From contig CAZQQS010000017.1 of assembly GCA_964595665.1 (NCBI GenBank), positions 3,230-13,159 on the forward strand: a DNA stretch of 9,930 bases. Reading direction: 5' to 3'. Shown here in pieces: positions 1 through 9,215 of this stretch. The notes beneath the pieces are model-generated. The model was given only the letters and a program-made list of their open reading frames with translations. It made no database searches and was not told where the DNA came from. The DNA comes from an uncultured archaeon. GTDB lineage: Archaea; Iainarchaeota; Iainarchaeia; Iainarchaeales; 0-14-0-20-30-16. The position numbers and the translations under genes were made by a program. Each line of letters opens with the position of its first letter. Positions within the stretch are counted from its first letter, which is position 1.

Positions 1-3000
1 TTGATTTAGCATTACCTAAATTAATTTGTGCAGAATAATATTTGTTTTTCAAATCAGAATTTAATGAATTTGAAATAAATTCTTTTGGCTCAACACCACA
101 TTTTACTAAACTAACATCACCAAAAGCTTCAGATCCTTGGCTAGTTAAAACTATTTTCATAGGATCTGTTTTCAAATGTGCTTGTGCTAAATCTACATCT
201 GTAAAATTCACTTCTAAAATATATTCTTTTCTTAAACCATCTAAAAAAGAAACAGAACTTACAGAATTATTAAAACTATCTTTTATTCTTGTAGTATAAC
301 CCATATTAGGCCCTGAAACAGTTAATTCTCCCGAACCTAATTTAACACCATCAACAACAAAAGTACATTCTTGTTTTCCCAAACCAAAATAAATTGGACC
401 ACATTTAGTTACAGAATATTTTCCTGCACTAGTATCTTCTAAATGTGTTGCACTATAAGATCCATCTTCATTAATACAGCCACCTAAAGTGCCATCCCAC
501 ATAGCTTTAATTAATCTTAAAGCATCTTGCTTATCTGACAAATTAGTTAAATTAAATGCATTATTTAAAACAACATTTACAATAGAATCTTTTACATTAA
601 CATTTAATTTTGATTGACCTATATTACCAGTTGCAATATGTAAAATATTATAGCTTCTTGAAGAATCAATTCTTTCAGAACCAAAAATAGATTTTGAAAC
701 TTCTTTTGCAAAATCTTTAATTCCAGTTTCAGAATCTAAAACAGCATATCTAAAACCATATAATGAATCTGTTTTTTGAACTATATCTTTTGGCAAATAC
801 ATTATAAAATTTTCTTGTTTTTCCTCACATTGTGGAGTACTTTCTTTTTCAATAACATCTACGAATAAATTAATATTATCGCTTTGAGGAATTTGATCTC
901 TAACTAAAAAAGATCCTTTCAAATCTATAACATATTTTCCACAACCTTTTAATTCGGGGTCAACATAAATATTTTGGAAATTATAATTATAAGATGTTAA
1001 ATCTAAATTTGTACTAGATGCTAAAGAAACACCTCTAATTGATTTTATATTTTGCACTATTTTTTCTTTTAAATATTCTAAACTAATATCATCATGCATT
1101 AAATATAATGTAAATTGAGTTGTTTGCACACCAATATATTCAAATCCACAAGTTTGTGATTCAATATTACAACTTGTTAAACCTAAATTCTTACTATATT
1201 TCAATACTTGAGAATTATAATTATCATAAAAACCTTTTAATTTTCCAGATATAAATTCTGTTGCTAATTGACCATCACAATAAGCTTCAGAACAAGAAAC
1301 ACTTTTTGCAATTTTAGGAACAGTTATTTTAACATTTCCTGAACCATCACATTTAGCAATTTCCTTTTGTGTAATTGGATCTTTACCAGCAGTAATTTTT
1401 GATTCACCAATATCAAATTCATAATTAATAGTTAAATTATATTTTGCACCAGTATATTGACCCATAGCTTCAAAAATTATTGGTTTAGTTAAAGACATAA
1501 TTTTAGCAGTATTCAAAACAGATTTTAATTTTACAGTTTGCATCGGAGCCAAAACATTAGATTCAGAAGTAATTTCTAATGAATTACCTTCAATATCTTG
1601 TTTAATAGGAGTATTAATTAAAATTGGTTCTACACATTCATTAATTAAAGTTGCAGAATTATTTTCTAAATTAATTCCTAATTTATTAGTCATAAAAGTA
1701 ATTTTATTTTGTGGAACAGTTAATTTAAAACAATTTTGAGTTGATAAATTTATCAACAAAGGCATTGTTTGACTTACTTCTTGATTATCTATTGCATTAG
1801 TTCCAGTTGCTGTTATAGAATATGCTGATACTGTATTAGAAGTTCTTGAAAATTGTGCGTTTACAAATAATTGCACCATAATTGTTTGACCAGGCAATAT
1901 TTGAGGAACTACATTTGGATTTGAAGCAATATGCACATTATTAGAATAGGAATTCAAATTACGTAAATAATCTCCTGTTGGATCTAAAGAAGTATTTCCT
2001 AAATTACTGCTTAAAGAATATAAACTATCCATACCATACATTCCACCAGCAGTTAATGGAGTATAAGAAATTTTTAAATTCTTTATTGGAGAATTACCAA
2101 TATTTTTTAATGTTAATAATTGAATAGATTGTTGACCAGAAACCATATACATTTGTTGTTGTTGTAAAGCCATTACAAAGGTAGTATCACTATTTACCAT
2201 TTTTATAGATAATGGAATTTCTTTTTTCAAATATCCAACATCAAAAATAACATTTGTTTCCAAATTCAAATTTGCAGTAGTTAATTTCTTAATTGCATTA
2301 ATATTATATTTTATAGATTTTGATTCTCCTTTACCTAAAGACGCACTAGTAGTATTAAAGGTTAATAATGCATCTAAATCTTCTGTACTTCTACTTTCTA
2401 AAATTGCAGAAACATTAGAAAAATTATATTCACAATTATTAGTTAAAACAAATTCACCATTATACTTTTCACTAGGAACATCGTAAACTGTAATTGTTGT
2501 AGCTTTAGGAGTAATATCTAAACAAACACTATCTAAATCTTTATTTGCAGAAAAACTTAAAGCACTTAATGCTCTAACAGTTTCTTTATCATTAATTAAT
2601 CCAGTAATTGCAATATCTTGAGATCCAAAAACTAAATCTTCATTTTCATAACTTACGTTAATATATAATATTGCTGATTGACCAGGCAAAATATTTGTTC
2701 TATTAAATTTATAATCAATAACAAACATTTCTGCATTATCTTTTAATATTTCCACACCCAAATTTATTACAGGCAATTTAGAAATATTTTTTACTTCTAA
2801 CTCATAATCAATTTGAGTCATCCCATTTGGGATTCTAATATCATTTTGTTTATTTACAGATAAAACATTTAATCGAGTTACAATAAACTTGCCAGAAACA
2901 TTAGAATAATTTTTAGCACTAACAGTATAAGTATAATTTCCAGCTGGCAATTCTTTAATAATATACTCACCATTTAATCCATTTCCTAAAGTATTGTCTC

Positions 3001-5830
3001 CTAAAAATAAAACACTAACTAAATTTTCAGAATCATAAACATTTAATTTTGCATTAGTTATTGCTCCAGAAGTACTTGAAACTTTAAATGCAATTGGTTT
3101 TCCTAATTCATAAACAGAACTATTCAAAGTTACTTGCATATTAGATTTTTCTTTAATATTAAATGAAAAATCTCTGTTAATTTGCATTTGATCAATTAAC
3201 ATATTAATTTTTCCAACACCTATAGATTTAGCTTCGAAATATAATCTATATTTTGCAATTTGACCTTTAAATAAATTTAATTGTAAATCTAAATCTGTTT
3301 GTTGTGAATCTTCTGGCAAAAATTCCATTAAATCCGAACTTATATTATTTAATACTAAATTCTCCATAATGTTTTTTGAACTAAACTTTACAGTAGTTGA
3401 CAAGTCATTTATAGAATAAAATTCTAATTCCAAAGCGTATTTTTGATCTAATGATGCTTCAAAATTTTCAATTTTTCCAAACTCATCTACAAACCTATAA
3501 GCATAACACAAATTTGCAATTTCACTACATTCAAAAGTATCTGAAAATACTTGCAAACTCTCAACCTTAGTTAACGCATATAATCTTTCTAATTTATTAG
3601 AACTTATTTCTGTATTTGGATCTGAATGATAAACACCATCATATGAAATTGCTCTAAATTCTAATGGAATTTTTTCAATACTTATTGTAGGATCAATTTT
3701 AATTTTAACATTAAATTCATTTGAACCTTTTGGTGAATCATAGTAAATATTTACCCAATTATTTTTAATTCCAGGTCTTCCAAATACTTGCAAATCTTTT
3801 ACTGTTGACAAAGATTCATTTTTTGAGAAATATAACCCATATTCAGTGCTTGCACCATAAGCTGTTGCACCATATATTCCATAACCATTTGCTAAAGAAT
3901 ATCCTTCACCTAAACGAACGTGTAATTCACCTTTATTTTGTGCTTTAGGCCAAACAACATTAAATTTTAGATTATATGTTTCTCCAGCTTTTACACCATT
4001 TACTTTTTTACCAAAAGCATCATAAATTCCTAAAAAAGAAATTCTTGGATTTGTAGATATGTCTAAAACATTTAATGTAAATTCCATTTTTGGTTCTACC
4101 ATTAAAATCTTAGAATAATATGTTTCTTCAAAAAATACAGATACCTCTACTTCTTTTAAGTCATAAGGATAAAATTCTATTATTCCATCCAAAGTATTTC
4201 CATCATACAATACTTGTGTTTCAGAAGATATTTTTAATTCTGCATTTTTTAAAACTTTTCCATCTAAGCCATACACATATAATTTTGAATTACCTTTATT
4301 TGGTAACATTACTATATCAAAATCATTTTGACCAACAACTAAGTTTTCTTCCATAGTGCCAAATAAATCTTGAGATGTTGCTTCAACATATAATCTTTTA
4401 TTTGCTTCTAAAATAACGCTAAAAAAACCAGCAATAGATGATTTCGAATCTGGTAAAATAATTGGATAATATTCTAAATTATCAACATAAAATAATTGCA
4501 ATGCAGAACTTACAGGAATATCTTTAGAATCAATTGTAAAAATATTTATTACGGCATTATTTTGCATATTAATTGGTTTTAAAATAATTTCTTCTCTTCC
4601 AGAATTTACATTAGTTACTTTTTTTGTAGAAGGATAATAATTATCTTCAGTATATGCTGAAAGATATGCACTTCTTTTAACATCTAACCCAGAAAATTCT
4701 ACTGTTCCCAAAATGCCAGTTCTATTTACATCTAATAATAATCCATTTTCGGAATATAATGCAACTAATACATTTGATAATTCTTTTCCTGCTTCATTTT
4801 TAGCAGTAACAATTAAATTTACTCCACCTGTTAACAAATCTACATCTCTAGACATAGAGTTTTGAATTACAGTAATATTTTGATTTGTTTCTTGTGAATT
4901 AAATGTTATGAAACCTTCTTTTGAAACAACATATCTTACAACTATACCTTTAGGAATATTTACTAATCCTAAACCCGCATTATCAGTATAAATTTCATCA
5001 ATTTTATCGTTTGTTTTTGTATTATATAATTCAATTTTTGCATCGTTTAAACCAATATTTAAAGATTTAACTAAAAAATTTATAGTCCCTGATTCAGTAG
5101 AATTAAATGATTTTCTTTCTATTTCTACATTTTCAATAACCCCATCTCTAGCATATATGGTTTTATCTGTTTCCATATACCCATCTAAAACAACTTTCAA
5201 TTTTAAAGGTGTTGCAATAGGAATATTTAATAAATTTATTTCTCCTTTAGAATTTGTTTCTCCTTCATATAAAATATCTTCACCATTTAATAAAATTATT
5301 TTTGCTCCAGATAAAACAGTTTTTTCAATATTATCTACTAATCTTAAAGACATATTTCCTAATAACTCATCTTTAGAAAAATTTAATTTTAATTCTAAAT
5401 CTTTATCCTCAACAACTATTGTTGCTGGCCCTAAAAAAGTATATCCTGAAATAATTGCAGATACAGCAATTACCGCTCCATTTTTAGTAGTAAAATTATA
5501 TTTCCCAGGTGTAACTACTTCCTCAAATATAGCTTCATCATTAACAGTTAAAGTTAAATCTGCAGAGGGTAATGAATTTCCAGCAGCATCTACTATAGAT
5601 ACATACATGTTAACATTGACTTTTGAAACCATAAAAACTAATAAAACGATTAAAGCAATCAAAATCAATAATAAGATTATATTAAACCAAACAGGTGGAA
5701 TTCCTTTAGATTCTAAAAAATCATTATACTTATCTATAGGAAGTCCCTTCTCAGATAAGAAATCAGAGAATGCATAATATTTATCTTCAAAAAAACCATT
5801 TATTTTTGTAAAAAATTCACCAACACCCAT
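1..5830 (-). CDS. Giant membrane-anchored cell-surface protein, 3'-partial (>=1943 aa visible, stop beyond the left window edge). Contains carboxypeptidase-regulatory-like/PEGA-type beta-sandwich repeats, CARDB/S-layer-like modules and orphan regions.
   Basis: The start is ATG at 5830..5828. AGGTG sits 5 nt upstream, and an in-frame TAA lies at 5840..5842. I checked every plus-strand triplet starting at positions equal to 2 mod 3, from 2 to 5828. None is TTA, CTA or TCA, so the minus-strand frame has 1943 codons and no stop. The translation begins MGVGEFFTKINGFFEDKYYAFSDFLSEKGLPIDKYNDFLESKGIPPVWFNIILLLILIALIVLLVFMVSK, with one hydrophobic helix at aa 46-68. It continues with repeated motifs such as MSLRLVDNIEKTVLSGAKIILLNGEDILYEGETNSKGEINLLNIPIATPLKLKVVLDGYMETDKTI. 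The track omits it because there is no stop in the window. The plus-strand ORFs listed here are antisense shadows of this gene. Confidence 0.85.
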   Translation of the reverse strand, partial: MGVGEFFTKINGFFEDKYYAFSDFLSEKGLPIDKYNDFLESKGIPPVWFNIILLLILIALIVLLVFMVSKVNVNMYVSIVDAAGNSLPSADLTLTVNDEAIFEEVVTPGKYNFTTKNGAVIAVSAIISGYTFLGPATIVVEDKDLELKLNFSKDELLGNMSLRLVDNIEKTVLSGAKIILLNGEDILYEGETNSKGEINLLNIPIATPLKLKVVLDGYMETDKTIYARDGVIENVEIERKSFNSTESGTINFLVKSLNIGLNDAKIELYNTKTNDKIDEIYTDNAGLGLVNIPKGIVVRYVVSKEGFITFNSQETNQNITVIQNSMSRDVDLLTGGVNLIVTAKNEAGKELSNVLVALYSENGLLLDVNRTGILGTVEFSGLDVKRSAYLSAYTEDNYYPSTKKVTNVNSGREEIILKPINMQNNAVINIFTIDSKDIPVSSALQLFYVDNLEYYPIILPDSKSSIAGFFSVILEANKRLYVEATSQDLFGTMEENLVVGQNDFDIVMLPNKGNSKLYVYGLDGKVLKNAELKISSETQVLYDGNTLDGIIEFYPYDLKEVEVSVFFEETYYSKILMVEPKMEFTLNVLDISTNPRISFLGIYDAFGKKVNGVKAGETYNLKFNVVWPKAQNKGELHVRLGEGYSLANGYGIYGATAYGASTEYGLYFSKNESLSTVKDLQVFGRPGIKNNWVNIYYDSPKGSNEFNVKIKIDPTISIEKIPLEFRAISYDGVYHSDPNTEISSNKLERLYALTKVESLQVFSDTFECSEIANLCYAYRFVDEFGKIENFEASLDQKYALELEFYSINDLSTTVKFSSKNIMENLVLNNISSDLMEFLPEDSQQTDLDLQLNLFKGQIAKYRLYFEAKSIGVGKINMLIDQMQINRDFSFNIKEKSNMQVTLNSSVYELGKPIAFKVSSTSGAITNAKLNVYDSENLVSVLFLGDNTLGNGLNGEYIIKELPAGNYTYTVSAKNYSNVSGKFIVTRLNVLSVNKQNDIRIPNGMTQIDYELEVKNISKLPVINLGVEILKDNAEMFVIDYKFNRTNILPGQSAILYINVSYENEDLVFGSQDIAITGLINDKETVRALSALSFSANKDLDSVCLDITPKATTITVYDVPSEKYNGEFVLTNNCEYNFSNVSAILESRSTEDLDALLTFNTTSASLGKGESKSIKYNINAIKKLTTANLNLETNVIFDVGYLKKEIPLSIKMVNSDTTFVMALQQQQMYMVSGQQSIQLLTLKNIGNSPIKNLKISYTPLTAGGMYGMDSLYSLSSNLGNTSLDPTGDYLRNLNSYSNNVHIASNPNVVPQILPGQTIMVQLFVNAQFSRTSNTVSAYSITATGTNAIDNQEVSQTMPLLINLSTQNCFKLTVPQNKITFMTNKLGINLENNSATLINECVEPILINTPIKQDIEGNSLEITSESNVLAPMQTVKLKSVLNTAKIMSLTKPIIFEAMGQYTGAKYNLTINYEFDIGESKITAGKDPITQKEIAKCDGSGNVKITVPKIAKSVSCSEAYCDGQLATEFISGKLKGFYDNYNSQVLKYSKNLGLTSCNIESQTCGFEYIGVQTTQFTLYLMHDDISLEYLKEKIVQNIKSIRGVSLASSTNLDLTSYNYNFQNIYVDPELKGCGKYVIDLKGSFLVRDQIPQSDNINLFVDVIEKESTPQCEEKQENFIMYLPKDIVQKTDSLYGFRYAVLDSETGIKDFAKEVSKSIFGSERIDSSRSYNILHIATGNIGQSKLNVNVKDSIVNVVLNNAFNLTNLSDKQDALRLIKAMWDGTLGGCINEDGSYSATHLEDTSAGKYSVTKCGPIYFGLGKQECTFVVDGVKLGSGELTVSGPNMGYTTRIKDSFNNSVSSVSFLDGLRKEYILEVNFTDVDLAQAHLKTDPMKIVLTSQGSEAFGDVSLVKCGVEPKEFISNSLNSDLKNKYYSAQINLGNAKS
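1511..2833 (-). other. Four CARDB / archaeal S-layer-domain-like modules within the giant protein (aa ~1000-1440).
   Basis: The modules share the pattern x-L/V-x-V/L-x-N-x-S/G-x-x-P-I/V-x-N-L ... I-L-P-G-Q-S/T-x-x-hydrophobic-x-hydrophobic. One example is DYELEVKNISKLPVINLGVEILK...NILPGQSAILYINVSY. Another is IQLLTLKNIGNSPIKNLKISYTP...QILPGQTIMVQLFVNA. The LPGQ codons are an identical 12-mer, ttgaccaggcaa, at 2678..2689 and 1886..1897. Two weaker modules are bracketed by Cys pairs (C1103/C1133 and C1367/C1399). Confidence 0.4.
4091..5608 (-). repeat. Six tandem, highly diverged protein-level repeats of about 70-90 aa (aa ~75-580 of the giant protein). They resemble the carboxypeptidase regulatory-like / PEGA beta-sandwich fold.
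   Basis: The same pattern recurs six times: hydrophobic-x-hydrophobic-x-D/K, then A/G-x-I/V-x-L, then T/N-x-x-G-x-hydrophobic-x-hydrophobic, then Y-x-V/L-x-V/A-x-x-G/E-Y/F. Examples are VSIVDAAGNSLPSADLTLTVN...GKYNF, INFLVKSLNIGLNDAKIELYN...TDNAGLGLVNIPKGIVVRYVVSKEGF, VNLIVTAKNEAGKELSNVLVALYS...GILGTVEFSGL...YLSAYTEDNY, and KLYVYGLDGKVLKNAELKISS...TLDGIIEFYPY. A seventh copy lies at aa ~897-985 (nt 2876..3142). No nucleotide-level repeat is visible. The family assignment is by eye, without an HMM. Confidence 0.55.
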
Positions 5831-5835
5831 AATAA

Positions 5836-5840
5836 CACCT
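5836..5840 (-). promoter_or_regulatory. Shine-Dalgarno-like site (AGGTG) for the giant ORF.
   Basis: The minus strand reads AAGGTGTTATTATG. AGGTG is complementary to the conserved 16S 3' end and lies 5 nt from the ATG. Confidence 0.5.
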
Positions 5841-5868
5841 TATATATATAAATAATAACATTTATAAA
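5841..5868 (-). promoter_or_regulatory. AT-rich TATA-like elements in the 46-nt cls/giant-gene spacer. This may be an internal promoter.
   Basis: On the minus strand there is TTTATAAA (5861..5868) and TTTATATATATA (5841..5852). If the first is an archaeal TATA box, the transcription start would fall near the SD and give a very short leader. Co-transcription with cls is equally plausible. Confidence 0.2.
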
Positions 5869-5876
5869 TAATGTAT

Positions 5877-7310
5877 CTAAAGCATAGGCGATATTAACCT
5901 TGCTAAAGATTCTAGTAGCCTTTCAAATTTACTTTTCTTCTTTAAGTTTTGTATATTTAACTCTACTGAATTCAATAAATCCTTATTAAAAATATCTACC
6001 AATTCATTAGTTTTATTAACGTCCAAAACAAAAGAACTTGCTTCAAAATCCAAATTTAAACTTCTTGAATTCAAATTTGCTGAACCAATAGAACACAAAT
6101 TATCAGAAATTAATAATTTATTATGTAAAAAACCTTTATCATAATAATAAATCTTTATCCCAACATCCAATAACTCATATAAAAAGGTTTTTGATGCTAA
6201 ATTAACAATATTTACATCTGATTTCAAAGGCAGAATTATTTTTACATCTACTCCTTTTAATGCAGCATTTTTTAAAGCAAATAATAATGTTTCATCCGGA
6301 ATAAAATAAGGTGTTTGAATATATAATCGTTTTTCAGCAGAAGTAATTAATGAAAATAAAATAAATTTTAAATTAGTTAATTTGTTATCTGGACCTGAAG
6401 GTGCAATAAATAAACTTGTATTTCCCGAATAATAAAATTTAGGAAACAAATCAAAAGAATCTATTTCTTTCTTTTTTACATAAACCCAATCTTTTAAAAA
6501 AATAGTTTGTAATGAATATACTGCTGGACCAATAATTTTTAATTGCATATCTCTCCAATTACCTAAAGAATTTCCTTTCAAATAATTCTCTCCAATATTT
6601 ATGCCTCCAATAAATCCAACCCTACCATCAATAATTGCTATTTTTCTATGATTCCTATGATTTATTTTACTTCTTAAAATAGAGTAATATACTGGATTAA
6701 ATACTGCATAATCAATATTATTTGTTTTACATATCTTTTTGAAATGTTTTTCAAATTTATTTGATCCTAAACCATCAATCAATATCCTTACTTTAACATT
6801 TTGTTTGGTTTTTTTAATTAACAAATTAAATAACTCTTTCGATAAGGAATCGTTTTCAAAAATATAGTATTCTAAATGAATATGCTTTTTTGCACTCTTT
6901 ATATTTTCAAATAATTCTGGAAAAAATTCTTTGCCATTGTTTAAAAATTTAATATCGTTATTATTGGAAAAAGGCATATTTGTTGAGTTTAATGCCAAAT
7001 AAATCAAATTTTTAGTTGCAACTAAATCTTTAGGATAATGTTTTGTTAATAAGATATTTTTTTGCATTGAAACTACTTTTTTTATAGCTTTATTATATTT
7101 CTTTCTTTTTAATTTCCAATCATAAAATTTTCTCTTTAAACTTTCTCCTAAAAACAAATATGCTATAATACCAATTCCTGGTAAAAGTATAATTACTAAA
7201 AGCCAAGCAATTGTTTTATATGGATCTCTATTCTCCAGAATTAAAACCAGAATTAAATTAAGAATGTATAACACGAATAAAATTAATAAAACATATAATA
7301 GCCAAGGCAT
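5877..7310 (-). CDS. cls: Cardiolipin synthase (phospholipase D superfamily, two HKD motifs, N-terminal membrane anchor).
   Basis: The ORF is 477 aa and ends in TAG at 5877..5879. HKD motif 1 is HRKIAIIDGRVGFIGGINIGENY (H221/K223/D228, nt 6627..6650). HKD motif 2 is HNKLLISDNLCSIGSANLNSRS (H396/K398/D403, nt 6102..6125). There are two N-terminal hydrophobic helices, with the Cls-typical ENRDPYKTIAWLLVIILLPGIGIIAYLFLG. An AGGA lies 8 nt upstream of the ATG (7319..7322). Confidence 0.9.
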   Translation of the reverse strand: MPWLLYVLLILFVLYILNLILVLILENRDPYKTIAWLLVIILLPGIGIIAYLFLGESLKRKFYDWKLKRKKYNKAIKKVVSMQKNILLTKHYPKDLVATKNLIYLALNSTNMPFSNNNDIKFLNNGKEFFPELFENIKSAKKHIHLEYYIFENDSLSKELFNLLIKKTKQNVKVRILIDGLGSNKFEKHFKKICKTNNIDYAVFNPVYYSILRSKINHRNHRKIAIIDGRVGFIGGINIGENYLKGNSLGNWRDMQLKIIGPAVYSLQTIFLKDWVYVKKKEIDSFDLFPKFYYSGNTSLFIAPSGPDNKLTNLKFILFSLITSAEKRLYIQTPYFIPDETLLFALKNAALKGVDVKIILPLKSDVNIVNLASKTFLYELLDVGIKIYYYDKGFLHNKLLISDNLCSIGSANLNSRSLNLDFEASSFVLDVNKTNELVDIFNKDLLNSVELNIQNLKKKSKFERLLESLARLISPML

Positions 7311-7400: not shown

Positions 7401-7473
7401 AGCCCCATGGTGTAGTGGTCTATCATCCGAGGCTTTGGACCTCGGGACCTGGGTCCGAATCCCAGTGGGGCTA
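7401..7473 (+). tRNA. tRNA-Gln (anticodon UUG), 73 nt, no encoded CCA.
   Basis: I folded the cloverleaf by hand. The acceptor stem is AGCCCCA (7401-7407) paired with TGGGGCT (7466-7472), with discriminator A7473. U8 is present. The D arm is GTGT/TCAT with loop AGTGGTCTA containing GG. The anticodon stem is CGAGG (7428-7432) paired with CCTCG (7440-7444). The anticodon loop is C-T-TTG-G-A, giving anticodon TTG at 7435..7437, U33 and G37. The T stem is CTGGG (7449-7453) paired with CCCAG (7461-7465), with loop TCCGAAT. The tRNA is a GC-rich island in AT-rich DNA. The A1:U72 pair and the GGUGUAGUGG D region resemble archaeal and eukaryal tRNA-Gln. Confidence 0.9.
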
Positions 7474-7493: not shown

Positions 7494-9215
7494 ATGAATT
7501 TAGAAGAATTGAAAATTCAATTAAATTATATTAATTCTGAATTAATCAATACTGCTTTAGAAATTTATGAACGAAACTTAAGATTAGGTTTTCCAGAATC
7601 TATTTGTATTTTAAGCCTATTTTTACCATATATTGAAAATAATGACAATAATAAAGAATTAAATTCATTAATAACTAAAAATATAACTAATGCTAATGAC
7701 AAAATCAAAGATTTAAAAATAATTTCTGAAATAGAAAACTTATTAGATCCAATAATAAAAGAAAAATTCTTAAAAAATGATTCAAAAATATTTGATATAA
7801 TTTTAAATAAAATAACTGATGTTGATTTAGCGTTAGCTTTAATGTCTGAAAAAATAACTTTAATTAATAAAAAAATATTTTTTCCAGATAAAAAAACTTT
7901 TATGACTTATATTGAAAAAGTATATGTTCCATTATCGCATGTTTTTGGAATTTATAGTTATACTACTTTATTTGATGATTTTATAATTACAAATAAATAT
8001 CCTAAAGAATACAAAGCTGTTTTAGAATTAACAAAAGAAAATTTAACGCGAAGTAAAGATGAAATAGAATATGTTATTTCAAAATTAAACAAATTTAGAA
8101 AATCTCAAAATGAAATTATTAAAGGAAGATTAAAAAGTCCAACAAGCGTTTTTAAAAAAATTTATGATAAAAAACAAAAACCTAATGAAATTATGGACTA
8201 TGTGGCTATAAGAATTATAACTAATACAATATCAGACTGTTATTCTTGGTTAGGACATATTTATTCTTTATGGGAACCAGAATTAGCTAGATTTAAAGAT
8301 TATATAGAACACCCAAAGCCTAATGGATACAAATCTTTACACATAGTTATTATTACAAAATTTGGCCCTATTGAAATACAAATCAGAACTTTTTCTATGG
8401 ATAGATTTGCAGAATTGGGTTTTGCTGCACATTGGCAATATAAAACAAAAAGTGAAAATAAGACATTATTAAAAATAAAAACATCAATAAATACTCAAGC
8501 ACCATATTTTGGAAATGGAAATATTTATGTGTATACTCCAAAAAAAGACATAATTTTATTAGAAAAGGGATCTTCAATTATAGATTTTGCATATGCTATT
8601 CACACATCTATAGGGAGTAAAATATCTTATGCCAAAGTAAATGGAGTTATTGTACCTATCGATACAAAAGTAAAAGATAAGGATTTAATTGAGATATTTA
8701 CAGATGAAAATAAAAAACCAAGTAAAAAATGGTTGGAATTTGTTATAACAAATAAAGCAAGAGATAAAATTTGCCAAATATTAAATATAAAACACATAGA
8801 TAAAAAAATAAAAGATATAAATCCAAAATTAAAAGTTTTAGAAAAAATATCTGTTGGAAAATGTTGTAATCCTTTTGCCAATGAAGAAATAGGAATTTAT
8901 AAAACAACAAAAAGAAAATTAATTTTGCACAATATAGCTTGTTTAGAAAAAAATAATTTAAATTATTCTTATGCTGGAGATTTATTAAAAATGCAATTCT
9001 TAACTTCTAAAACAATAAAAATAATATTTAATCAAAATCCAAAAAATATTTTAGAAATGTTAAAATTAAAAATAAAACTTCCTTCCGAATATTTTATAGA
9101 TTTTGAAAAAAAAGAAGCAATTCTTAATTATGATTTTAATACTTCTGAAGATTTTGAAAATCTTAAGAAAGAATTGCTAAATAATGAACATGTTGAAAAT
9201 GTTGAATTGATTTAG
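7494..9215 (+). CDS. relA: Long RelA/SpoT homologue (RSH). It is a likely (p)ppGpp synthetase with a degenerate, inactive hydrolase-like N-terminus followed by TGS, Cys-motif (ZFD/CC) and ACT/RRM-like regions.
   Basis: The ORF is 573 aa and ends in TAG at 9213..9215. The synthetase signature spans aa 205-317: GRLKSPTSVFKKIYDKK, DYVAIRII, RFKDYIEHPKPNGYKSLH, EIQIRT and AAHWQYK. The TGS region is aa 343-404: IYVYTPKKDIILLEKGSSIIDFAYAIHTSIGSKISYAKVNGVIVP. The Cys motif is aa 455-485: KCCNPFANEEIGIYKTTKRKLILHNIAC. The tail at aa ~505-573 is ACT-like. The N-terminal ~185 aa occupy the HD-domain position, and YVPLSHVFGIY matches the conserved YAPLAHRLG helix. No His occurs before residue 149, so the H...HD metal ligands are absent. 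Confidence 0.88.
   Translation: MNLEELKIQLNYINSELINTALEIYERNLRLGFPESICILSLFLPYIENNDNNKELNSLITKNITNANDKIKDLKIISEIENLLDPIIKEKFLKNDSKIFDIILNKITDVDLALALMSEKITLINKKIFFPDKKTFMTYIEKVYVPLSHVFGIYSYTTLFDDFIITNKYPKEYKAVLELTKENLTRSKDEIEYVISKLNKFRKSQNEIIKGRLKSPTSVFKKIYDKKQKPNEIMDYVAIRIITNTISDCYSWLGHIYSLWEPELARFKDYIEHPKPNGYKSLHIVIITKFGPIEIQIRTFSMDRFAELGFAAHWQYKTKSENKTLLKIKTSINTQAPYFGNGNIYVYTPKKDIILLEKGSSIIDFAYAIHTSIGSKISYAKVNGVIVPIDTKVKDKDLIEIFTDENKKPSKKWLEFVITNKARDKICQILNIKHIDKKIKDINPKLKVLEKISVGKCCNPFANEEIGIYKTTKRKLILHNIACLEKNNLNYSYAGDLLKMQFLTSKTIKIIFNQNPKNILEMLKLKIKLPSEYFIDFEKKEAILNYDFNTSEDFENLKKELLNNEHVENVELI

Follow-up and report, generated by a model that had tools for sequence, protein, structure and literature searches.

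The 9,930-nucleotide stretch analysed here, called the window below (contig CAZQQS010000017.1 of assembly GCA_964595665.1, from an uncultured archaeon), is dominated by a giant open reading frame (ORF) on the minus strand that leaves it at the left edge. Judged by its orthologues, the window holds the N-terminal ~70% of a real gene for a single-pass membrane protein whose full length is estimated at ~2,800 residues (Table 1). Read from ATG 5830 to position 2, the frame contains 1,943 sense codons and 0 stops, with one base over at position 1. The remaining five frames across this region hold 68 to 255 stops each, and the longest open run in mononucleotide shuffles (n = 200) had a mean of 68 codons and a maximum of 129. 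The original prediction had singled out this stop-free frame as missing from the ORF list, and our recount agrees; it was missing because it runs off the window and such ORFs go unlisted. The same prediction had placed the start behind a Shine-Dalgarno motif, with a TAA four codons further upstream. Both stand (the in-frame TAA lies at 5842-5840), the motif is conserved in three other genomes, and the start codon is further corroborated because all homologues align from residue 1. The spacing of the AAGGTG motif is as in the window in two related contigs (L081 and L083), and the spacer is 7 nt in a third (L082). Together with a TTTATAAA box, a candidate archaeal TATA element, this motif is kept upstream of the giant gene in all three contigs despite a synonymous divergence of ~0.7 in the coding sequence.

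Three plus-strand ORFs fall in the region of the giant gene (42-299, 4120-4356 and 5157-5777) and are taken to be antisense by-products of the minus-strand coding frame. The last one, a 206-aa ORF antisense to the giant gene, lies in the plus frame with 68 stops; such a scarcity of stops agrees with a frame lying antisense to a gene in AT-rich DNA. Selection was measured in the minus-strand frame only. An alternative genetic code was also considered and rejected: the late-looking start of the prolyl-tRNA synthetase (ProRS) gene is that of an ORF leaving the window, and the giant ORF contains 0 TGA codons.

Orthologues and purifying selection

A word-indexed search of 5.8 billion proteins returned nine relatives, three of which cover 100% of the 1,943 residues and are colinear with the window protein from residue 1: P0001 (76% identity, 2,805 aa), P0002 (70%, 2,838 aa) and P0003 (39%, 2,914 aa). 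Given these lengths, some 860 residues of the window protein fall past position 1. Aligned by codon with the two closest orthologous loci, the gene yielded ratios of nonsynonymous to synonymous substitution rates (dN/dS, Nei-Gojobori) of 0.25 and 0.27, ranging from 0.10 to 0.57 per 250-codon segment with the lowest value, 0.10, at residues 501-750; for comparison, the neighbouring cardiolipin synthase and relA genes gave 0.08 and 0.20. These comparisons establish the giant ORF as a real gene under purifying selection, in line with the original claim of coding selection, for which a dN/dS near 1 had been named as the contrary outcome.

The family extends well beyond these close relatives. A HMMER profile of residues 1000-1943 matched 154 of 1.84 billion cluster representatives at E<=1e-3 (146 at E<=1e-10), a family size that counts clusters at 50% identity. 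Most of the matched proteins measure 2,200-4,500 aa and the full-length ones, in which the module lies at ~1,000-2,050, have a median of 2,782 aa. Among the matches listed, none falls outside the giant-family architecture, and the scores tail into short fragments. Across its about 150 sequence clusters, the family is strictly colinear. Sequence searches for relatives of solved structure found none, whether they used the window protein, the family profile of residues 1000-1943 or the C-terminal 857 aa of the orthologue.

Table 1. Position of the giant gene, its predicted protein regions and the neighbouring features in the window (AF2, AlphaFold2; pLDDT, predicted local distance difference test score)
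Feature	Position	Strand	Residues	Basis or remark
Giant ORF	2..5830	minus	1-1943 of estimated ~2,800	Stop-free frame, colinear orthologues, dN/dS 0.25-0.27; 3' end past position 1
Cys-rich mixed alpha/beta module, family-specific	62..1375	minus	~1486-1923	Helices and strands, pLDDT mostly 75-92
Four Ig-like beta-sandwiches	1391..2833	minus	~1000-1480	AF2; Cys pairs 1103/1133 and 1367/1399 in two domains, at least 98% conserved
CarboxypepD_reg-like beta-sandwich	2876..3136	minus	~899-985	Best PF13620 stretch 953-983; same position strong in relatives
All-beta module(s)	3152..4045	minus	~596-893	H637-x-R639-x-G641 motif, invariant C768/C775 pair, most constrained block
Six tandem ~85-aa beta-sandwiches (prealbumin/CarboxypepD_reg/macroglobulin-like)	4076..5620	minus	~71-585	AF2, Foldseek, sub-threshold Pfam
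Single transmembrane helix (signal anchor)	5621..5695	minus	46-70	Kyte-Doolittle up to 3.55
N-terminal tail, probably cytoplasmic, tandem DFLxxKG(I/L)P	5696..5830	minus	1-45	Best-conserved family segment
Shine-Dalgarno-like AAGGTG	5836..5841	minus		5-nt spacer to ATG 5830
TTTATAAA box, candidate archaeal TATA element	5861..5868	minus		Within the 46-nt cardiolipin synthase/giant gene spacer
Bacterial-type cardiolipin synthase (cls)	5877..7310	minus		TIGR04265, 419 bits (cut-off 290); directly upstream of giant gene
tRNA-Gln(UUG)	7401-7473	plus		
RelA/SpoT-synthetase + TGS protein	7494-9215	plus		

Membrane anchor and probable cytoplasmic tail

In a conservation profile built from 94 full-length relatives, the N-terminal tail stands out with a mean identity of 41% versus ~20% elsewhere, and E15, D23, G29, P31, E40, G43 and P45 are conserved in at least 85% of them. 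A phmmer search with residues 1-75 of P0001 (tail plus helix) matched 104 of the 158 family sequences, and tails of the DFLxxKG(I/L)P type are also found on second giant proteins in two contigs carrying distant members (L084, 20769-28445; L085, 12245-19312). Several giants may use the tail as a common module for sorting or anchoring, with a partner in the cytoplasm. The transmembrane helix is the sole strong hydrophobic segment in all 16 family members examined. Hydropathy, cysteine conservation and fold analogies support a predicted extracellular location for all residues past this helix, and the tail would then be cytoplasmic.

A class III prepilin-like signal was considered at this place, as K42-G43 stands just ahead of the helix and the conserved residues include G43 and P45. 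The site fits prepilin cleavage poorly: the leader would measure 43 aa, an invariant proline sits at +2 and a second copy of KG(I/L)P, 14 residues further upstream, has no helix after it. The ~600-aa ORFs that adjoin distant family members, on the other hand, begin canonically (KKGFTLFTAL).

Stalk domains

Two AF2 models were built on family alignments, with domain borders read from secondary-structure strings and not from coordinates. The model of residues 61-1000 is all beta (pLDDT 86.9), and that of residues 1000-1943 (pLDDT 83.9) consists of four Ig-like sandwiches followed by a mixed alpha/beta part. Overall, the stalk comprises about nine beta-sandwich domains, four Ig-like domains and the Cys-rich alpha/beta module (about 14 beta-sandwiches overall); at ~4 nm per domain, it could reach tens of nanometres if extended. 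Self-BLAST detected no internal sequence repeats at E<=10 and the family hidden Markov models (HMMs) of the putative domains cross-match weakly; the repeats are therefore structural and not sequence-level.

Searched with Foldseek against the PDB, the N-terminal model matched CD109, the E. coli alpha-2-macroglobulin ECAM, complement macroglobulin (MG) arrays, the B. anthracis TIE adhesin, DSCAM and titin. For the six tandem sandwiches, Pfam matches stay below threshold in the window protein (CarboxypepD_reg on the second domain, D2, and bMG3 on the fourth, D4), and the equivalent domains pass the Pfam cut-off in homologues; SpaA is also sub-threshold in the window protein. The only Pfam family above its cut-off in the window protein is CarboxypepD_reg (PF13620), with a whole-protein score of 38.2 bits (cut-off 32.3, E 1.9e-9) that is summed over two sub-threshold stretches, the single domains scoring 25.5 bits (D2) and 24.4 bits (D9, at ~899-985); it matches 16 of 17 relatives. 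PEGA (PF08308) reached 15.2 bits at residues 959-994 against a threshold of 20.8 and overlaps the CarboxypepD_reg match; five of the 17 relatives match it at E<=0.001. Between these sandwich regions, residues ~596-893 have no Pfam match at E<=10 and no PDB relative.

The best structural matches of the Ig-like region are ASH/HYDIN-type arrays, pilins, the SbsB S-layer protein, cadherins and integrins. It also matched viral models in BFVD (DUF11, BACON, Ig and phage tail proteins), with template modelling scores (TM-scores) of at most 0.2. CARDB (PF07705) gave no match, either with the whole protein at E<=1 or with the isolated Ig-like domains at E<=10. The third Ig-like domain carries a disordered insertion rich in S, N, Y and G (residues ~1263-1294, window ~1949-2044, minus strand), which is the sole low-confidence loop of the AF2 model; in P0002 it is longer by ~40 residues of N/Y/Q-rich low-complexity sequence, making it a hypervariable spot in an otherwise constrained stalk. 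The alpha/beta module that follows has no Pfam or PDB relative over residues ~1486-1923, and its conserved features are C1494, C1513, C1518, C1554, C1561, C1630, C1668 and C1785 as well as Y-C-D and G-C-G-x-Y motifs.

After the tail, the next-best conserved blocks are 600-800 (H637, R639, G641, D679, R726, C768, C775) and 1500-1700. Fifteen of the 17 cysteines are at least 86% conserved and several form pairs 7 to 32 residues apart (768/775, 1103/1133, 1367/1399), a pattern that fits predicted disulfide-bonded extracellular domains. N-x-S/T sequons occur at chance frequency (26 observed versus 25.3+-4.3 in shuffles; mean z 0.02 over 40 relatives) and are not preferentially conserved, 14 of the 26 being kept in the 76%-identical orthologue, approximately as overall identity predicts; these counts leave room for glycosylation itself.

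Most of the anatomy sketched in the original prediction survives these analyses. Its short tail and single transmembrane helix correspond to the one strong hydrophobic segment at ~46-70, and its 17 cysteines and roughly two dozen sequons, all after the helix, to counts of 17 and 26. The seven regulatory-like beta-sandwiches fit the model, with six at 70-585 and one at 899-985, and the estimate of ~750 residues without a family was fair, the modules at 596-893 and 1486-1923 having neither Pfam nor PDB relatives. The four proposed CARDB-like modules are present as Ig-like domains, although their assignment to CARDB is not supported at sequence level; in the same vein, the Pfam comparison it called for retained CarboxypepD_reg as a summed match and neither PEGA nor CARDB. 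Structure prediction and Foldseek, also called for, returned confident beta-sandwich and Ig arrays matching extracellular stalk or adhesin folds. The headline reading, a giant anchored surface protein that could serve in host contact, is thus supported by dN/dS, the single helix, cysteine conservation and the predicted stalk folds.

Distal segment and enzymatic tips of the relatives

In complete relatives, a weakly hydrophobic segment rich in glycine and a coiled coil, both conserved (94 members), come after the alpha/beta module, and a C-terminal tip ends the protein. Peptidoglycan (PG) hydrolase domains occupy this end in five of the five complete proteins from the closest clade (34-76% identity). 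The tip of P0001 combines SLT (2406-2447) with a GDSL/SGNH esterase (2636-2781) and displays the SLT catalytic motif 'NES...GLGQF' and GDSL blocks I ('GDSIT') and III ('GGAND'). P0002 has weak lysozyme-like matches and Amidase_2; P0003 has SLT and Amidase_2, followed by a separate 511-aa GDSL gene; P0018 has SLT and GDSL, and P0019 SLT. O-acetylation of N-acetylmuramic acid blocks lytic transglycosylases, and SGNH-family O-acetyl-peptidoglycan esterases (Ape enzymes) remove the acetyl group, so that the pairing of SLT and GDSL is, by analogy, mechanistically suggestive. Residues 1-1943 have no SLT match; in orthologues SLT lies at about 2400-2600, past the window edge. Because all five complete clade members have a murein-hydrolase tip, the unseen C-terminus of the window copy very probably carries one as well. 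Beyond residue ~2400, P0001 and P0002 abruptly lose their high identity; tips have therefore been exchanged between close relatives.

Family-wide, the tips form four main clusters plus singletons, and all those with a Pfam match are murein hydrolases: SLT, DUF2272+SLT, NlpC/P60, or NlpC/P60+Amidase_3+glucosaminidase. No PG-binding domain was detected in the stalk-tip architecture of this family. The Pfam-less end module of one 35-member cluster was compared with lysozyme-like domains as a possible cryptic relative and rejected (hhalign probability at most 2.5%).

Genomic neighbourhood and host

Besides the features of Table 1, the window contains the C-terminal part of a class-I ProRS, whose ORF leaves the window edge, and its GC content is ~25% throughout, without compositional break. 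The adjacency of cls and the giant gene is kept in all three related contigs (cls at 8520-9953 in L081, 1-627 in L082 and 2-460 in L083), down to 39% identity of the giant protein. The 33-kb contig of P0001 (L081), the only one of the three that reaches further upstream, also has ProRS, relA and tRNA-Gln in a slightly different arrangement. The nearest genome relatives of this cls belong to Bacteroidota, with at most 44% identity. Its pairing with the giant gene could be mere synteny or could reflect a functional link, such as remodelling of the membrane where the protein is anchored or makes contact.

Although cls and relA are bacterial-type, the lineage is archaeal, since the contig of P0002 (L083) encodes a PAC2 proteasome-assembly chaperone as well as Alba, which scores above the cut-off curated by NCBIfam. 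Judging by low GC, small-genome features and the literature, it probably belongs to the Woese-/Pacearchaeota (GTDB Nanoarchaeota).

The T-loop of the tRNA-Gln(UUG) in the window reads TCCGAAT, so that position 55, almost universally a U (pseudouridine 55), is a C. In L081, the orthologous tRNA-Gln (8356-8430) has the canonical TTCGAAT and a compensatory T-stem change (CTGGG/CCCAG versus CAGGG/CCCTG); the C55 is either a true variant or a sequencing error. The RelA/SpoT protein shares 75% identity with its counterpart in L081 and has no Pfam HD hydrolase match in its N-terminal ~200 residues. To our knowledge, (p)ppGpp synthetases are rare in archaea.

Downstream of the close orthologues (L083 9027-15611; L081 18458-21522) come a 329/336-aa ORF on the opposite strand and then ORFs of 163, 1,438 and 247 aa, none with a Pfam match or recognisable as an immunity gene. 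Of these, the 1,438-aa ORF begins with what resembles a signal peptide, and those of 163 and 247 aa seem to encode polytopic proteins. These ORFs, which probably also lie just left of the window, may encode partners of the giant protein. In distant members (L084 1-10000 and 18856-28445; L085 10296-20244), a ~600-aa ORF with a class III signal of the prepilin type (e.g. MNKKGFTLFTALISLLL) comes after the giant gene, and one or two more giants come next; upstream, L084 encodes a T2SSE-type ATPase and an exosortase-like gene. The prepilin-like ORFs and the ATPase suggest a link of these distant members to a type-IV-filament-like machinery.

Discussion

The genomic comparisons described above lead us to view the window protein as an anchored stalk protein of an AT-rich DPANN-type archaeon, whose murein-cutting distal tip would be aimed at a bacterial partner, an interpretation to which we attach a probability of about 0.72. 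A type-II-anchored stalk would project tens of nanometres from the archaeal surface, and its distal tip would bind and cleave the murein of a bacterial partner or prey, which might result in attachment, local wall breaching or nutrient release. Since the archaeon would have no murein of its own, it would need no immunity protein. The present data favour neither attachment, nor wall breaching for exchange, nor killing as the purpose of such a device. Several points weigh against this interpretation. The enzymatic tip of the window copy lies outside the window, tips differ even between orthologues that are 70-76% identical, and most family members end, without a recognisable hydrolase, in one of two ~200-aa Pfam-less modules (35 members, and another cluster of 21). 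In addition, the topology comes from hydropathy, cysteine conservation and fold analogies, the charge balance around the helix not being decisive; the placement in Woese-/Pacearchaeota comes from the literature and low GC and not from a marker-gene tree; and activity, localisation and expression are predictions for every member.

Some of these points are shared by a different and rather unlikely explanation, in which the protein is a structural envelope component or general adhesin (S-layer-like or fibril), the stalk domains are themselves the function and the window copy may be tipless. The absence of recognisable hydrolases from most family members and the position of the C-terminus outside the window would suit such a role, as would the Foldseek matches to SbsB, pilins, cadherins and integrins and the tandem paralogous giants with the same N-terminal anchor in distant relatives. 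However, murein hydrolase domains are present in five of five complete members of the clade of the window protein, and known lattice-forming S-layer proteins do not resemble a monomeric stalk of ~2,800 aa that has a single-pass anchor and, distally, a conserved coiled-coil/glycine-rich segment. Alternatively, the tips could arm an antibacterial weapon for interference competition or predation ('vampiristic' lysis), with possible release of the tip by proteolysis and no stable attachment. The shuffling of tips between close relatives recalls polymorphic toxin systems, a predatory lifestyle has been proposed for Woesearchaeota with large GH23 proteins (PMC9723730), and bacteria-killing archaeal PG hydrolases are reported in another study (PMC12352652). 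Nevertheless, we consider a weapon improbable: an N-terminal membrane anchor and a conserved, probably cytoplasmic tail speak for a device that stays on the cell, neither a cleavage site nor a mechanism of release was identified, and killing and attachment are not distinguished by the present data.

A viral or mobile-element origin, in which an integrated tail-fibre or tape-measure-like gene carries a lysin, draws on parts that tail-associated lysins and Ig-decorated fibres also possess and on the BFVD matches to phage Ig, BACON and tail proteins. Those matches are to generic Ig folds at the low TM-scores given above, while the housekeeping synteny (ProRS, relA, tRNA-Gln, cls) is kept in L081, the cls adjacency recurs in three genomes, base composition is uniform across the window and no integrase or phage genes lie nearby, which makes this origin very hard to sustain. 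As for a chance open frame, a pseudogene or an assembly artefact, the only point in its favour is that the stop codon is not within the window; an open length 15 times the shuffle maximum, full-length homologues, purifying selection and the 154 clusters refute it and leave it a negligible probability. Finally, the murein-cutting stalk that we prefer might be the core of a more elaborate cross-domain contact apparatus: the stalk, the wall-cutting tip and a glycine-zipper-like segment would breach the murein and engage the bacterial membrane, the DFLxxKGIP tail would couple to an intracellular partner and the adjacent cls would remodel the membrane at the contact site. We regard this extension as speculative and unlikely in its entirety.

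Proteins of this kind are already present in the DPANN literature, although they are experimentally unstudied. Castelle et al. 2021 (PMC8204110) describe a family, fam00969, whose proteins measure 'up to 3,000 aa', carry a murein lytic transglycosylase domain and are specific to the Woese-/Pacearchaeota of smallest genome size; the authors propose an extracellular location and an action on bacterial walls, and mention that such proteins had been sighted earlier in three genomes. A large murein-like lytic transglycosylase protein had been noticed before (Castelle 2015, AR20), and two further papers report the same kind of gene, one as a 'large lytic murein transglycosylase' of GH23 (Vigneron et al. 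2022, PMC9723730; mBio 2024, PMC10936187). The window protein fits this family by its length class (2,805-2,914 aa in orthologues), the SLT domain of its close orthologues, its small-genome archaeal host and the proposed extracellular action on walls; however, the window lacks the SLT-bearing end, and the likeness is to a published description and not to a sequence clustering. What appears to go beyond the portions of these accounts available to us, in which the transglycosylase is the sole domain named, is the colinear scaffold, the conserved tail that is also found on paralogous giants, the shuffled multi-enzyme tips, the cls neighbour, and the prepilin-like ORFs and T2SSE-type ATPase of distant members.

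Two other bodies of work deserve comparison. A recent study (PLoS Biol 2025, PMC12352652) reports from experiments that archaea make PG hydrolases that kill bacteria, with homologues prominent in Nanoarchaeota. Both cases involve bacterial-type PG hydrolase domains in archaea; however, the enzymes described there fuse PG-binding and catalytic domains, whereas here catalytic domains end an anchored stalk of ~2,400 aa. Archaeovorins and other giants of predatory Omnitrophota (West-Roberts et al. 2023, bioRxiv 10.1101/2023.11.21.568195) are likewise very large multidomain proteins, associated with the surface of small-celled organisms that depend on hosts or prey, and SLT-bearing giants exist among them. 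They differ in being bacterial, in measuring 10,000 to over 30,000 aa and in having many TPR, glycosyltransferase and methyltransferase domains. They are an analogue and not a homologue, since the search with the profile of residues 1000-1943 found only its own family and gave no sign of homology to them.

The SPEARE proteins of Nanohaloarchaeota, which Hamm and colleagues reportedly described in 2019, are said to be giant multidomain surface proteins of DPANN episymbionts proposed for host contact, differing by their serine protease, adhesion and restriction endonuclease content and by their archaeal hosts. Polymorphic effectors of the CdiA, Rhs and MafB type combine a long conserved scaffold with exchangeable C-terminal enzymatic tips, and the tips of the present family also differ between close relatives on a fixed scaffold. 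Here, however, FHA, Rhs and YD repeats are absent, as is a two-partner secretion context, the tips belong to a few classes and are not hypervariable, and no immunity gene is recognisable.

To conclude, we know of no cultivated DPANN archaeon with a bacterial host, and the main genomic argument for some archaea living on bacteria comes from the recurrence of giant murein-hydrolase proteins in Woese-/Pacearchaeota genomes. With the tip of its copy missing, the window by itself leaves the host question unanswered, but it adds one more, fairly divergent member, whose relatives give a fuller anatomy made of an anchor-stalk scaffold, a tail, exchangeable tips and a cls neighbour. This anatomy names pieces for biochemistry and imaging, in particular the tip domains of ~150-450 aa and the conserved 596-893 module. 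If the contact apparatus outlined above were real, it would constitute molecular evidence for archaea parasitising bacteria and a new class of trans-envelope device.

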